This document shows positions 5,128 through 45,215 of a stretch of 64,000 bases of DNA, piece by piece. A model generated the notes under the pieces. That model had not been told where the DNA came from. It made no database searches and was given only the letters and a program-made list of their open reading frames with translations. Position 1 is the first letter of the stretch; the number at the start of each line of letters is the position of its first letter. Where the stretch lies: contig OZ241917.1 in the NCBI GenBank assembly GCA_965203805.1, forward strand, positions 4,640,001 to 4,704,000. The letters are read 5' to 3'. The DNA is from Candidatus Latescibacterota bacterium. GTDB taxonomy: Bacteria; Latescibacterota; UBA2968; GCA-2709665. The position numbers and the translations under genes were made by a program.

Positions 5128-6318
5128 ATGACAGTTCGTAAGGATGAATGGAAGCCAGGTCCTGAAACGATTGAATCGCTGTCCTCGCTGATCCGGTCGA
5201 AACCCAAAGAAGTGCGGTGGACCGAAATCGGCTGGGAGACGGACCTCTGGACGGCCCGGCGCCGCGCGGCCGCGGTGAACAGACCGATGTTCATCTGGGC
5301 GATGAACGGAAACCCGCTCGGCTGCGTCTGAAACAATGGCATCGCGGGCCGTGAGTCCGTTTTCTCCCATCCCGGTATTATCCGGATCCTCAACGAGTCC
5401 TACGTTTCCGTTGCGGACAACTGCAGCTACACCCAGACACAGAAAGACGCCAAGGGCGAATTCTTTCGCCTCGTGGCGGAACAGGGCCATTACGGCGGCG
5501 TCACCGAACCCACGGCCACCAGGCAGGGCCTGTACGCGTGTACCTCGGACGGCGAGTTGCTGGGGTCCATCAACACGCGGGATGCCGCCCCCCTACTGGA
5601 ACTGCTAGAGCAGAGCCTGGAGAGGTGGCGCAAGCGCCCGGCCGGGGGCGCGTCCGACGATATTCCCGAATCCTATCCCATCGATCCCAGACTCGGATGG
5701 TCCTATCCGGACAACGGCCTGGCGCTCAAAGTCACGGTCCGGGACCTCCCTCGGAATTCCAATGGCCTCGACGCCCGGCACAACATCGACTTCGCGTGGT
5801 TTACGGAAGAGGAGATCCGGTCGCTGGTGCCCGGGAACCCCCGTCCGGGGCAGACCTGGCGCGCGCCGGGCTTTTTCACCAGGCGTCTCGCCCTGCGCCA
5901 TTTCATCGACACGGTCCGCGGTCAATCGCCGGGTTGGCGGGAAGAAAACCTGAAGGAAGGAGAGATTCGCCTGACCGTCGAGGCCGTCGAAGCCGACCAC
6001 GTACGGTTCCGAATGGATGGATGCATCGAGCTCGAAGCCGAACCCACGTATGAAACCAATCCCCACAGCAAGCTTACGGTGGACAAGCCACGGGGCCTGA
6101 AACTGGACCTGTTCGGCCGCATCGGGTTCGAGCCGCGCCAGCGGCGCGTCAGCGCCTTCGACGCCGTCGCGACGGGCGACCGCTGGGGCTGTACCACGTA
6201 CAACGTGCGCTTCGACGATCCCGGCCCGGCGCCCATCGGTTTCGCGTTCGAACTCGCGTCGGACGACCCCATCGAACGCACCCCTCCCGCCTCCATCGGA
6301 CGGAATTACTTCGCCTGA
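5128..6318 (+). CDS. Putative thioredoxin-like selenoprotein (396 aa, C66-x-U68) read through UGA 5329-5331
   Basis: RBS AAGGAGA precedes ATG 5128. ORFs 5041-5331 and 5473-6318 are in the same frame, with no stop between them except the TGA. The readthrough gives GNPLGCV-U-NNGIAGRESVFSHPGIIRILNESYVSVAD. A SECIS-like hairpin follows. Confidence 0.75.
5344..5360 (+). promoter_or_regulatory. Putative bacterial SECIS element
   Basis: Stem GCGGGC/GTCCGT (4 Watson-Crick and 2 G-U pairs) with loop CGTGA (G at loop position 2). The loop starts 18 nt after the UGA. Confidence 0.6.
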
Positions 6319-6350
6319 CGCGTCATCCCCGGAACACGTAAAGCAATTCA

Positions 6351-6387
6351 CGCCCCCGCAACGGATTGTCGACACGTTGCGGGGGCG
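6351..6387. repeat. Perfect 13-bp inverted repeat downstream of the selenoprotein candidate
   Basis: CGCCCCCGCAACG, 11 nt loop, CGTTGCGGGGGCG. No clear U-tract. Confidence 0.6.
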
Positions 6388-6477
6388 CGTGTGTTGGGGC
6401 GGGGCATATCTGCACCTAACTTGACAGCCATTCAGATGGTATTCGAGCCCGCCTGTACTTGTTGAAATCCGTCCCAT

Positions 6478-6510
6478 AAAAAAAACCCCGCGTCGCGTTG
6501 CGAGGCGGGG
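6478..6510 (-). terminator. Rho-independent terminator of the NYN gene
   Basis: On the + strand an A8 run is followed by CCCCGC..TCGC/GCGA..GCGGGG, which reads as a hairpin plus U-tract on the minus strand. Confidence 0.7.
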
Positions 6511-6543
6511 CTCTTGAGAGTCGGGAGTACAAACACCGATCAC

Positions 6544-7200
6544 TTAAATCTCAAGTAGAAAGTCATTATGGATGCTGAGATCCGATTGTATTGTAGAATG
6601 CCTGAATTTCACCATACAGACACGAAGACCTTCGGTCCTCGCTAATTTCATAGCTGGTACCATATCAGAATCACCTGTCGCAAGGATTACCGTTGAAACA
6701 AGGCGTTTCAGAGCCAAGGAGGTCATATCTATACCCATCATCATGTCCACGCCTTTTTGCACGATGTTTGGTCTTATATCCTTAGCACCTGGAATGGTTT
6801 GAGATTGGGAACTATTATTGTATACTTTTCGGAGGTAGCTATGGCTAAGTGACCAACCCCTTTGAATTAATCTACCCTTCCGAATAGCAATATGGTCAGT
6901 TTTTCCCAATTTTGCGATTAAATCCGTGTTGGCAGAATGCTGTGGCGTCTTCGCAAAATCAATAACATCGTTACTATCTAATGGGTTTATTGTTATAGAT
7001 TCCAGTGGGTCTGCCGTGTAGTAAAATATCCGGTACAGCTTAAAATCAGATCCGAACTTATGGCTTGCCTGCCTCACAATGTCGAAGCTCTCTTTCTTCA
7101 TTATCGGGTAATCTGGAAAACTGCCAAACTTGGTCTGCAGACACTTCTTAAACCACTCACCATCGATCAGAACAGCTATTCTTTCGAAAAGAGAATTCAT
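6544..7200 (-). CDS. NYN domain (LabA/DUF88, PIN-fold) putative ribonuclease
   Basis: Motifs VLIDG, RIFYY, QKGVDMMMGID and TGDSDMVPA..LAR.EG, with the acidic active-site residues present. Visibly AT-richer than the flanks. Start at 7200 or 7206. Confidence 0.88.
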   Translation of the reverse strand: MNSLFERIAVLIDGEWFKKCLQTKFGSFPDYPIMKKESFDIVRQASHKFGSDFKLYRIFYYTADPLESITINPLDSNDVIDFAKTPQHSANTDLIAKLGKTDHIAIRKGRLIQRGWSLSHSYLRKVYNNSSQSQTIPGAKDIRPNIVQKGVDMMMGIDMTSLALKRLVSTVILATGDSDMVPAMKLARTEGLRVCMVKFRHSTIQSDLSIHNDFLLEI

Positions 7201-7225
7201 CAGCATTTCCCACAACAAAACGAAT

Positions 7226-7311
7226 GCCCCCTGCGCCGCGTGCGTGCCTTTTCAAGCTCGCGAACTTGAAAATTCTGCACGTCTTTGGATGGGTAACGAA
7301 GCGCAGGGGGC
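7226..7311 (-). ncRNA. Putative structured leader RNA upstream of the NYN gene
   Basis: Outer 11-bp perfect stem (7226-7236/7301-7311), middle stem CGTGC/GCACG, inner stem TTTTCAAG/CTTGAAAA, and a large asymmetric bulge. Confidence 0.55.
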
Positions 7312-7341
7312 CAGATTTCCTCAGTGGCTCCAAGTTGGGAT

Positions 7342-7372
7342 AATATATACCCCGACATTGTCTCATTGTCAA
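7342..7372 (-). promoter_or_regulatory. Putative sigma70 promoter for the leader and NYN gene
   Basis: Minus strand TTGACA (7372-7367), 17 bp spacer, then TATATATT. Confidence 0.65.
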
Positions 7373-7473
7373 GTTTATTTTATCTGAACACCCATACTCC
7401 CTTTGTGGTTTCCACCCGAACTCTGACGAAGCCGGCGTGAGAGTGGGGCAGGCATTCCTGTCTGCCTGCGTGT

Positions 7474-7713
7474 GCCAAACCTGTCATCCTGAGGAAACTG
7501 CCAAACCGACGATGTCTCCGCGCAATTGTGTTTACCGCGTTGTTGCGTAAAGGACAATCGGGAAGACGGGAGATTCTTCGCTCCGCTCAGAATGACATGT
7601 CTTGTAGTCGGCATCCGCGAAACGTCTCGGCCAAACCTGCGCTTATACTGTCATCCTGAGGAAGCTGCCAGGCCTGCCGTAGAATCAATGGCAGGCCGGC
7701 TGACAAGGGATCT
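7474..7713. repeat. Cluster of GTCATCCTGAG / CTCAGAATGAC palindromic (REP-like) repeats
   Basis: CTGTCATCCTGAGGAA occurs twice (about 7481 and 7647), with an inverted GAGATTCTTCGCTCCGCTCAGAATGACA between them. Confidence 0.65.
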
Positions 7714-8704
7714 ACTGCGGCAGACGATTCGCCTCCTCCATTCTCTCGCTGTAGCGCTCGCTCGCTGCGTCGAGCCTGGCGCGCAATTCGGCAGGCAGCT
7801 TCAGCGCCGCGCCGGCCAGCGTCTCATCCACGTGAGCCGTGGACTCGGGACCGGCCAGCACCGATGTCACTTCCGGGTGATCCAGCACCCATGCGACGCA
7901 GACCTGCGCCCGGCCGACGCCCAGTTGTCCGGCGGCCTCGTCCAGCGCCGCGTGCATCTCCGCGAGCGGGGATCCGGGGTCGGCCTCGAATCGGGGCGAC
8001 AGCTCGCCCGCATCCAGCGGGCTGTACGCAATCACGCCGATTCCCTCGGCGCGCACGACCGGAAACATTTCGCGTTCCAGTTTTCGGATTCTGGACCGCC
8101 CGTCCGGCGTGAGCGTATAACCCGCCACAGTGTAGTAATCTTCGATAACGGTCGGCTCACTCGTGCCGGCGCCCCGGGCGTGCGCGCAGCACGCCTCCAC
8201 GAAAGCCGCATCGTGATTTGACAGACCCCAGAAGCGCGTTTTCCCGGTTCGCACGAGACGATCCATCGATTCGCAGATCTCCGCGGCGGGGGTCCCCTCG
8301 TCCGGCGAATGCAGCAGATACAGATCCACGAAATCGGTGCGCAGACGCTTCAACGACGCCTCGAGGCGCCGCGCCAGGAATTCCCGGGTGAATCTCGCCG
8401 GCCCACTCGCGCCTCCATCGCGTGCGGGACGATGTGCCGGCGGTACCTTCGTGCAGATGACAGAACGGTCACGCCGGCCCTCCAATACTCTCCCGAGCAA
8501 CTCTTCCGACCCTCCCCAACCGTATTCCTGTGCGGCGTCGAAGAAGTTGACGCCCGCGTCCAGACAATGCCGCAGCACCCGCTCCGCCTGGGGGTCGCGC
8601 GCGTTCCGCTCCAGGTGACGGAAGGCCGTGCCCTGGCAGTACCGCGTGACCATGAGATCGGTCCGTCCCAGTCGCACGGGTGTCAGTGGCGAAGCATGTT
8701 CCAT
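7712..8704 (-). CDS. Aldo/keto reductase
   Basis: Motifs LGRTDL.V, GVNFFDAAQEYG.G.SEE, SLKRLRTD.VDLY.LH and YSPL. Start refined to MEHASP. Confidence 0.88.
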   Translation of the reverse strand: MEHASPLTPVRLGRTDLMVTRYCQGTAFRHLERNARDPQAERVLRHCLDAGVNFFDAAQEYGWGGSEELLGRVLEGRRDRSVICTKVPPAHRPARDGGASGPARFTREFLARRLEASLKRLRTDFVDLYLLHSPDEGTPAAEICESMDRLVRTGKTRFWGLSNHDAAFVEACCAHARGAGTSEPTVIEDYYTVAGYTLTPDGRSRIRKLEREMFPVVRAEGIGVIAYSPLDAGELSPRFEADPGSPLAEMHAALDEAAGQLGVGRAQVCVAWVLDHPEVTSVLAGPESTAHVDETLAGAALKLPAELRARLDAASERYSERMEEANRLPQ

Positions 8705-44929: not shown

Positions 44930-44998
44930 CGCGAGGGATTTCAGGAGGAGAATTACCGACGTGCTGGGAATTACGGTGTTAAATATCAAATACCCAAA

Positions 44999-45040
44999 CC
45001 AAACCCCTGGACAGAACGAGTTCAGGGGTCTGGTTTTTTC
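44999..45040 (+). terminator. Rho-independent terminator of the ECF-TlpA operon
   Basis: CCAAACCCCTGGAC...GTTCAGGGGTCTGG followed by TTTTTT. Confidence 0.7.
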
Positions 45041-45215
45041 TTCAAAAGTGGGTCGGTTAATCAATCAATAGGTTACCCATGTAAATTGGATATGTAGTCC
45101 CGCGAAGAAATCCAAACCTCAAATCGTCACTTCCAAATGGCTCCATTTTGCCGATCATGGGTGGCCTGATTAGGGCGATCCGTGCCAACATTCCAACAAG
45201 CCTCCTTTGTCTGCC

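Follow-up and report, generated by a model that had tools for sequence, protein, structure and literature searches.

The NYN nuclease gene of a 64,000-nt stretch of a Candidatus Latescibacterota genome (contig OZ241917.1 of assembly GCA_965203805.1, positions 4,640,001 to 4,704,000; hereafter the window) is preceded, on the same transcript, by a leader that comparison across homologues identifies as a real, conserved RNA element, neither a chance fold nor a genome-wide repeat. Comparative analysis establishes the structure of this RNA, its conservation, its 5′ position on its own transcript and its tight linkage to NYN clades. With a probability of roughly 0.45, judged by analogy, leader and gene form a self-contained RNA-restrained nuclease module, similar to the C. 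difficile AbiF/RCd22 system or a type III toxin-antitoxin pair. An earlier, sequence-only reading of the locus had described a nuclease cassette with a structured leader and proposed an RNA antitoxin or defence system. All cassette features are on the minus (-) strand, and positions are those of the window.

The leader is a nested hairpin with a one-sided internal loop

The whole leader RNA motif, the long form of a type termed class A, spans 7214..7321 as delimited by covariance-model matches. It begins with an A-rich 5′ flank, GGAAAUCU (7313..7320), predicted in the fold to pair with the U-rich tract at the 3′ end. The basal stem, P1, is composed of a 5′ strand, GCCCCCUGCGCUUCGU (7296..7311), defined by an inverted repeat and a 28-sequence alignment, and a 3′ strand, ACGCGGCGCAGGGGGC (7226..7241), defined by the same two sources and the fold. 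Between P1 and the inner hairpin lies a one-sided internal loop of 12 nt, UACCCAUCCAAA (7284..7295), unpaired in the fold, which harbors AUCCAA (7290-7285) of the AUCCAAAG core (7290-7283). The inner hairpin, P2 (7242..7283), drawn from the fold and from compensatory changes in eight long-form sequences, comprises a G7283-C7242 pair, P2a (7281-7277/7247-7243) and P2b (7272-7263/7258-7249), capped by a CGCG loop. Immediately 3′ of P1, the sequence reads as a U-rich tract, AUUCGUUUUGUU (7214..7225). The G+C-rich P1 and the tract directly after it together appear terminator-like, in a geometry outside our fixed-rule terminator scan, which required a loop of 3-8 nt.

The predicted folding energy is -54.9 kcal/mol (z = -3.0), a stability matched by 2 of 200 shuffles. 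The sequence-only reading had described an 11-bp outer stem, a one-sided bulge of ~20 nt and an inner hairpin. The inner hairpin is present, as are the perfect 11-bp arms of the outer stem (7311-7301 and 7236-7226), and the bulge needs correcting. Comparative data place P1 at 7311-7296/7241-7226, with one U.C mismatch and one U.G pair; the loop therefore measures 12 nt rather than ~20 nt, because UUCGU belongs to P1. Direct repeats at the locus occur only outside the leader.

Compensatory changes conserve the leader upstream of NYN genes

Two covariance models of class A were built, R1 from the window and three genus- or family-level relatives (four sequences) and R2 from 19 short forms. The window leader scores 107.4 bits with R1 and 37.8 bits with R2 (E = 1.7e-10), the latter being the sole R2 match in the genome at E ≤ 1. 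Searches of the 5.87-Mb genome with the leader DNA, with the protein and with the RNA model gave a single match apiece (150 of 1334 candidates were scored in the genome scan with the RNA model); a genome-wide repeat, an objection that the sequence-only reading had itself raised, is thereby contradicted. The NYN genes of the three relatives follow the same leader, in which P1 shows compensatory changes; R1 also detects the motif before NYN homologues in distant phyla. R2 matches at E < 0.01 occur at 35 of 91 loci, each directly upstream of an NYN gene and on its strand, and at 7 of the 80 loci of a viral set, directly before the NYN open reading frame (ORF) and on the same strand. Class A is represented in at least six phyla, with records from Latescibacterota, Gemmatimonadota, Acidobacteriota, Myxococcota, Planctomycetota and Gammaproteobacteria. 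Among 151 related genomes, all nine distinct loci scoring at least 37 bits precede an NYN gene or what remains of one, except for a single locus where the ORF has been replaced.

Covariation was assessed on 28 sequences from several phyla, aligned to the model, with matches below ~32 bits excluded along with L047 and L101, whose reverse-strand matches would enter. P1 is 93.8% paired, and 10 of its 15 pairs show compensatory (two-sided) changes. Its covariation score reaches 0.436; shuffles give 0.204, none of the 500 attaining the observed value, and sliding the partners gives 0.08-0.15. The other objection raised earlier, that the structure might not be conserved upstream of homologues, is answered by these changes across many phyla. 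P2 varies in sequence and length with its pairing kept, and P2a and P2b both show compensatory changes among the eight long-form sequences, which come from the window's genus. At two P1 positions the most frequent standard pair is G.U, and with the class A models the window scores 37.8 bits on the forward strand but at most 17.3 bits in reverse; the G.U pairs and the far lower reverse-strand score assign the structure to the RNA of the NYN strand.

Conservation of sequence is concentrated in the loop, where the six core columns hold A in 25, U in 25, C in 24, C in 25, A in 28 and A in 26 of the 28 sequences. In the 5′ flank, alignment columns 4-7 have A in 15-23 of 28 sequences, and AAATC is invariant in the four genus-level sequences; the columns 3′ of P1 have T in 15-23 of 28. 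Rfam 15, whose search the sequence-only reading had suggested together with the covariation analysis, holds no family for the window leader at E ≤ 10 nor for nine class A short-form loci at E ≤ 1.

Some class A matches were set aside. An R2 match at 44992-45042 of the window, at 19.1 bits, corresponds to an ordinary terminator, a simple G+C-rich hairpin followed by a T-run. Two identical 59-nt copies of a hairpin with a T-run in one genome (L108 and L115 of G026; 34 bits) are not beside NYN, and L108, the copy examined closely, resembles a repeated plain terminator with CCAAG in its loop. Separately, three Gemmatimonadota-type leaders (L024 2897-2978, L025 2886-2965 and L040 566-645) look circularly permuted inside P1, with the small hairpin first and a (U)AUCCCAA-like stretch on the 3′ side of the loop.

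Leader classes and NYN proteins diversify together

A shorter hairpin with an AGUA...CGA internal loop, class B, precedes many homologues, mainly in phages and Firmicutes and in some high-GC hosts. It matches the Rfam family RF03535 (TEG147), directly before NYN homologues, at L143 (62.9 bits against a cut-off of 56.1) and at L147 and L190 (~35 bits each). Our own covariance model of class B, R3, matches 17 of 93 genome-set loci (a set that includes two phage records) and 42 of 80 viral loci, 59 in all, and every match is directly upstream of NYN and on the NYN strand. R3 has no match in the window, and RF03535 has none in window positions 6000-8000 at E ≤ 10 or in the whole genome at E ≤ 1.

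In S. aureus HG003, Teg147 is described as a bona fide small RNA (sRNA) of 60 nt whose GC content is unusually high (PMC5826253), and it is said to derive from a genomic island (PMC3053349); a sarcin-ricin loop was called in RF03535 by JAR3D (PMC13085918). The available passages of these three papers and of PMC7779021 state neither a function for Teg147 nor a link to NYN. That Teg147 itself, at 386294-386353 in S. aureus NCTC 8325, precedes an NYN gene was not confirmed from sequence, and a Megablast comparison of the L143 TEG147-NYN region with the phage collection found nothing.

Mapping leader class onto a tree of 126 NYN proteins, from which duplicates and proteins with no findable start or outside 150-330 residues were dropped, requires 14 changes, versus a mean of ~58 with shuffled labels (0 of 200 shuffles as low). 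Class B forms one clade with a local support of 100, and its sister clade is marked by a Verrucomicrobia-type leader. The window groups with L006 and L007 in a class A grade. At the level of sequence, this distribution shows that RNA and protein diversify together; binding is not thereby proven.

A third leader form was also seen at three loci on genome contigs (L075, L030 and L028) and one viral locus (L118), where a small conserved hairpin, CCGYUACGCCnGUAGGC, lies upstream of the NYN start and is followed by a separate plain terminator hairpin and U-tract. L075, L030 and L118 belong to a strongly supported eight-row clade with L026, L036, L042, L053 and L062; L028 is absent from the tree, and the inspection covered the four loci named first rather than the leaders of those five.

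Promoter, hairpin and U-tract recur across the NYN family

The arrangement seen in the window is widespread among homologues. A hairpin of 40-115 nt with ΔG ≤ -15 kcal/mol, ending within 4 nt of a T-rich octamer and within 45 nt of the start codon, is present in 75 of 131 unique upstream regions, versus 74 of 655 shuffles and 6 of 131 in-ORF windows; regions with no findable start, too near a contig end or duplicating another were excluded from this count. Within 80 nt upstream of the motif, a TTGACN-N16-18-TANNNT promoter pattern occurs at 35 of 85 unique loci, versus 0 of 1700 shuffles and 2 of 85 reverse complements, and TTGAC alone at 50 of these 85 homologous loci, versus 141 of 1700 shuffles. 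The -10 hexamer ends 3-39 nt before the motif. With a promoter positioned just upstream, the leader RNA would therefore be the first thing transcribed from the cassette promoter. In several loci the start codon follows the U-tract by 0-8 nt, and there P1 could also occlude ribosome binding.

In the window, the cassette's own putative promoter, already noted in the sequence-only reading, consists of the -35 hexamer TTGACA (7367..7372) and, after a 17-nt spacer, the -10 hexamer TATATA (7344..7349), both read from the sequence. The -10 hexamer aligns with TATATT of two relatives, G006 and G019. The consensus promoter scan left this promoter unflagged, since its second hexamer ends in A. Transcription would start near 7336, yielding a leader of ~136 nt (~7336 to 7201), in line with the ~130 nt first estimated, and the U-rich stretch reported just before the start codon corresponds to 7225-7214.

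Hairpin and ORF are exchanged as a unit, and the ORF decays repeatedly

The same cassette site is found in five same-genus genomes, where the matched flanks are 78-91% identical to those of the window. The NYN alleles at this syntenic site are far more divergent, with 112 of 218 residues identical between the window and G006, where the flanks reach 82-89% identity. G012 combines a window-type promoter region with a G006-type hairpin and ORF: its identity to the window is 0.89 in the promoter, 0.65 in the leader and 0.56 in the ORF, and its identity to G006 is 0.57, 0.87 and 0.82, respectively. The exchange junction lies at a conserved GAAAUCU just 5′ of P1. Judged from these identities, hairpin and ORF have been exchanged as one unit within the genus, with the promoter retained.

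Among relatives, 11 loci bear the leader, and the ORF is intact in three (window, G006 and G019) and broken or gone in eight. The lesions comprise a stop (G004), truncations (G007 and G012), an internal deletion (G013), frameshifts (both G001 copies and G069) and a replacement (G016), and all eight loci retain a high-scoring leader. Different, repeated lesions suggest that the gene is costly; some could be assembly errors, the genomes being partly metagenome-assembled.

In G016 (L102 1501-1759), the leader is near-identical to its G019 counterpart, ribosome-binding region included, and right after the start codon it continues into an unrelated ORF of 54 aa instead of NYN; Pfam gives no family for this ORF. 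A likeness of this ORF to an AbrB-type N-terminus was an unsupported impression and was discarded.

The NYN protein is intact and structurally recognizable

The ORF, reported as intact in the sequence-only reading and confirmed here, encodes 218 residues (6544..7200, with ATG at 7200 and the stop at 6544). Pfam PF01936 (NYN) matches residues 134-203 only, with 41.4 bits against a cut-off of 24.2 (E = 2.6e-10), and NCBIfam gives weak NYN-type matches only. The AlphaFold2 model has a predicted local distance difference test score of 90.1, and its top Foldseek matches are a LabA-like protein (2qip, E = 1.4e-7) and the NYN domain of MARF1. Searching PDB sequences by profile gave no match at E ≤ 0.01. 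All 25 invariant columns of a 37-homologue alignment are kept, including D13, D152, D158, D177 and D179, which are candidate catalytic residues by analogy with NYN/PIN motifs. The family comprises 452 clusters at 50% identity (E ≤ 1e-30). Within it, the window allele sits on a long terminal branch (1.1 versus a median of 0.34); its nearest genomic relative is 51% identical, and a metagenome contig holds a 94%-identical protein.

Comparison with known RNA-controlled nucleases

According to the available passages of one report, a SigA promoter in C. difficile drives a noncoding RNA (ncRNA) of ~100-130 nt, RCd22, which ends in a terminator, and a minor read-through transcript encodes the AbiF RNase; in cis, RCd22 stops transcription ahead of abiF, in trans it binds AbiF directly and neutralises it, and its deletion raises abiF expression 17-fold (PMC12373285). 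This pair, located in the phi027 prophage, shares with the cassette the succession of a sigma-70-type promoter, a conserved structured ncRNA, a terminator and an RNase gene, a layout that is predicted in our case; the mobile, prophage-associated character of the module is a further likeness (PMC12373285). In contrast, its nuclease is of the HEPN Abi_2/AbiF type rather than NYN, and its RNA holds two abiF motifs (RF03085), whereas the leader here is one hairpin whose basal stem is itself terminator-like. The action of its RNA was, in the same passages, shown by experiment, whereas the present cassette is known through its sequence alone. HEPN Abi_2 and RF03085 are absent at the cassette, for which Pfam gives NYN only and Rfam no leader match.

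The toxin of type III toxin-antitoxin systems cuts a repeat antitoxin RNA into units. In the passages available on ToxIN, CptIN and TenpIN, the RNA lies directly upstream of the endoribonuclease gene with a terminator between them, as proposed here, and the systems are mobile, plasmid- or phage-associated and mediate abortive infection (PMC3401426, PMC8860590, PMC5772629). In the cassette, the corresponding promoter, hairpin, U-tract and ORF were recognized in silico only. Unlike the single, unrepeated hairpin of the window, type III antitoxins are described as multiple RNA repeats in a cyclic complex with the toxin (PMC8860590), and the NYN fold is unrelated to that of the type III nucleases.

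TEG147 shares the position of the window leader: at L143 and the other class B loci it lies between a promoter and a homologous NYN gene, has an internal-loop hairpin followed by a U-tract, and is associated with NYN proteins that form one family with those behind class A. It differs in its 9-bp P1 and symmetric AGUA/CGA loop, compared with the 16-position P1 and one-sided AUCCAA loop of the window RNA. In eukaryotes, the PIN/NYN-type RNase Regnase-1 (ZC3H12A) is self-regulated by a stem-loop in its own mRNA. The pairing of an NYN/PIN-like nuclease with a structured element in its own transcript is common to both, as an analogy only; the Regnase-1 element is eukaryotic, resides in the 3′ untranslated region and involves no terminator. 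Within the literature covered, which leaves out subscription journals and supplements, we found no paper describing an NYN/RNA pair.

Proposed mechanism and alternative explanations

In the reading we favor, again at roughly 0.45 and by analogy, the leader would have a two-part role, the hairpin attenuating transcription in cis and the released short RNA serving as the cognate restraining ligand of the nuclease. The cassette's own sigma-70-type promoter would fire ~25 nt upstream of the long hairpin, and P1 would act as an intrinsic terminator because it is flanked by the A-rich 5′ tail and the U-tract. Most transcripts would end at the U-tract, producing a stable small RNA of ~110-125 nt whose A-rich and U-rich ends pair, while a minority would read through and encode the NYN RNase. 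The conserved AUCCAA loop would provide the recognition site for the cognate NYN protein, and the abundant short RNA would restrain the nuclease by sequestration and/or as its preferred substrate. If the RNA were lost, for example because an infecting phage shuts off transcription or because the element itself disappears, the nuclease would be released. We infer termination, binding, toxicity and a role in defence. The RNA-antitoxin or defence proposal of the sequence-only reading survives in part: the structure is conserved before homologues, the layout resembles AbiF/RCd22 and a sister class is a detected 60-nt sRNA, whereas the tandem repeats of type III systems are absent.

Several observations weigh against this reading. 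The evidence for this locus is sequence alone. Tandem RNA repeats were not found (Tandem Repeats Finder, 6400-7750, 0 rows), and the leader hairpin was not called by the terminator scan, because its "loop" is far longer than 8 nt. The neighbors in the window are metabolic (SDR, aldo/keto reductase and Ldh_2), with no defence island; across 25 other loci no neighbor is conserved, and mobile or defence genes are a minority. PADLOC gives a weak match of NYN type (E = 1.9e-4). The tracking of the protein tree by leader class and the co-transfer of hairpin and ORF are both expected from physical linkage, leaders beside broken ORFs may only mean recent decay, and Teg147 is without a stated function in the literature passages available.

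A leader acting only in cis, as an attenuator and possibly an autoregulatory cleavage site, is a conceivable but rather unlikely alternative; the short RNA would then be a by-product, and NYN would act in housekeeping or phage-lifecycle RNA processing rather than as a toxin. Such a role fits the terminator-like architecture immediately before the start codon, the start 0-8 nt after the U-tract in several loci (where P1 could occlude ribosome binding), the lack of tandem repeats and the ordinary genomic context of the window. A plain attenuator, however, needs neither a near-invariant 6-nt unpaired core across phyla nor distinct loop classes that follow protein clades; promoter and leader persist beside broken ORFs, with compensatory changes in P2, and the RNA of the closest dissected analogue also acts in trans, according to the available passages (PMC12373285). 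The hairpin might instead be a trans-acting sRNA gene or a mere insulating terminator that is linked to NYN and has other targets or none, an improbable account to which the cataloguing of Teg147 as an independent sRNA (PMC5826253, in the passages available) and the survival of leaders without an intact NYN gene in eight loci lend some weight. Against it, no copy of the motif distant from an NYN gene or remnant turned up in the window's genome or among the strong matches of the 151 relatives, it is always on the NYN strand directly before the start codon, and its loop core is kept far beyond the needs of a terminator.

Marginally less probable still is a riboswitch or sensor, in which a small molecule or unrelated protein would bind the loop and set read-through into NYN. 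A conserved unpaired core within a terminator stem, and control of read-through, are formally compatible with the layout, but at least two structurally unrelated leader classes before one protein family would be unusual for a shared ligand, the RNA start is too near P1 for an upstream competitor, and Rfam gives no match. An alternative (antiterminator) helix is unsupported: the candidate formed by the inner 5′ bases of P1 and the 5′ bases of P2 is 66.4% paired versus 61.9% in shuffles, a value reached by 14 of 500, with a covariation score of 0.228 versus 0.181, this being one candidate helix in a non-exhaustive search of alternatives. The imperfect palindrome could, finally, be a DNA recombination site of the integron attC kind used for cassette exchange, which we regard as very improbable. 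The hairpin is long and imperfect, with extrahelical bases, and is swapped with the ORF as a unit at a junction in the conserved GAAATCT just 5′ of P1, as such a site would predict. Nevertheless, two P1 positions favor G.U over the other standard pairs, and the model score drops sharply on the reverse strand; conservation extends to the U-tract, the promoter and the distance to the start codon; no integrase is nearby in the window; and no attC-like conserved end motifs were apparent on inspection. The sister class, moreover, was detected as RNA in the passages available (PMC5826253).

Extending the favored RNA-restrained nuclease module to the whole family is more tentative. Stand-alone NYN proteins with promoter-proximal hairpin RNAs may constitute a large unrecognised family of single-hairpin RNA-antitoxin/RNase abortive-infection modules, with at least three co-evolving RNA classes, a distribution over many phyla and the lysogeny regions of temperate phages (E. 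coli lambdoid prophages among them), and Teg147 as one antitoxin; we hold this to be possible, though below even odds. If so, a PIN-like/NYN toxin with a single-hairpin, terminator-embedded RNA would join the list of RNA-antitoxin systems, now made up of ToxIN-type systems and AbiF, the orphan sRNA Teg147 (Rfam TEG147) would gain a function, and the gene beside the repressor in many temperate phages would be explained. Co-variation between RNA classes and protein clades provides natural material for a swap of specificity. Whatever the mechanism, the class A leader is a well-supported structured RNA without an Rfam family and merits curation.

NYN homologues in phages, prophages and other contexts

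NYN homologues are present in at least 230 IMG/VR contigs, in 65 phage records and in 275 of 5426 complete E. coli genomes, these 275 carrying the same DNA as the NYN region of Escherichia phage ev099. The NYN gene of ev099 and of Proteus phage Brookers comes after a LexA-type repressor and is co-oriented with it, that of Streptococcus phage Javan85 has an XRE regulator on one side and the integrase on the other, and that of Moraxella phage Mcat4 is placed between the terminase and coat genes. Promoter, hairpin, T-run and start codon recur in the ev099 and Mcat4 copies. The position of lambda rexAB is the lysogeny-module "moron" slot of lambdoid phages. The ev099 and Brookers homologues, directly downstream of a cI/LexA-type repressor and in the same orientation, occupy a comparable slot, whereas the window copy is chromosomal, between metabolic genes, and RexAB is unrelated in sequence and mechanism. 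Among the 25 other loci, the flanks hold a transposase or resolvase at five, type I restriction, GmrSD or UvrD-like genes at three, and phage capsid and tail genes at one.

In ev099 (L198 2386-2512), the NYN gene is located after the repressor and before an N-like antiterminator gene. Its promoter reads TTGACG/TAGATT, and the leader is a nested hairpin with a T7 run 10 nt before the ATG.

The cassette and its surroundings in the window

Downstream of the ORF, the terminator scan identified an intrinsic-terminator-like hairpin with a T-run (6476..6506; stem 6506-6485), composed of a 7-pair stem with 5 G-C pairs and the tail TTTTTTTATG. The cassette forms a 38-48% GC island in flanking DNA of 60-70% GC. 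Both its own terminator and its AT-rich composition agree with the sequence-only reading. It is flanked by an ORF without an assigned family (5473-6318) and an aldo/keto reductase gene (8863-7712), with SDR and Ldh_2 genes further out, and the window gene list contains neither an integrase near the cassette nor phage genes nearby.

The interval from the NYN promoter to the aldo/keto reductase gene contains two copies, at 7481-7503 and 7648-7670, of a short GTCATCCTGAGGAAGCYGCC-like repeat that is dispersed in the genome; it has 16 genome copies at up to 2 mismatches, and a reversed control pattern has 0. On the other side of the cassette, just past the convergent ORF 5473-6318, a perfect 13-bp inverted repeat, CGCCCCCGCAACG / CGTTGCGGGGGCG, at 6351-6387 is probably the terminator of that ORF.

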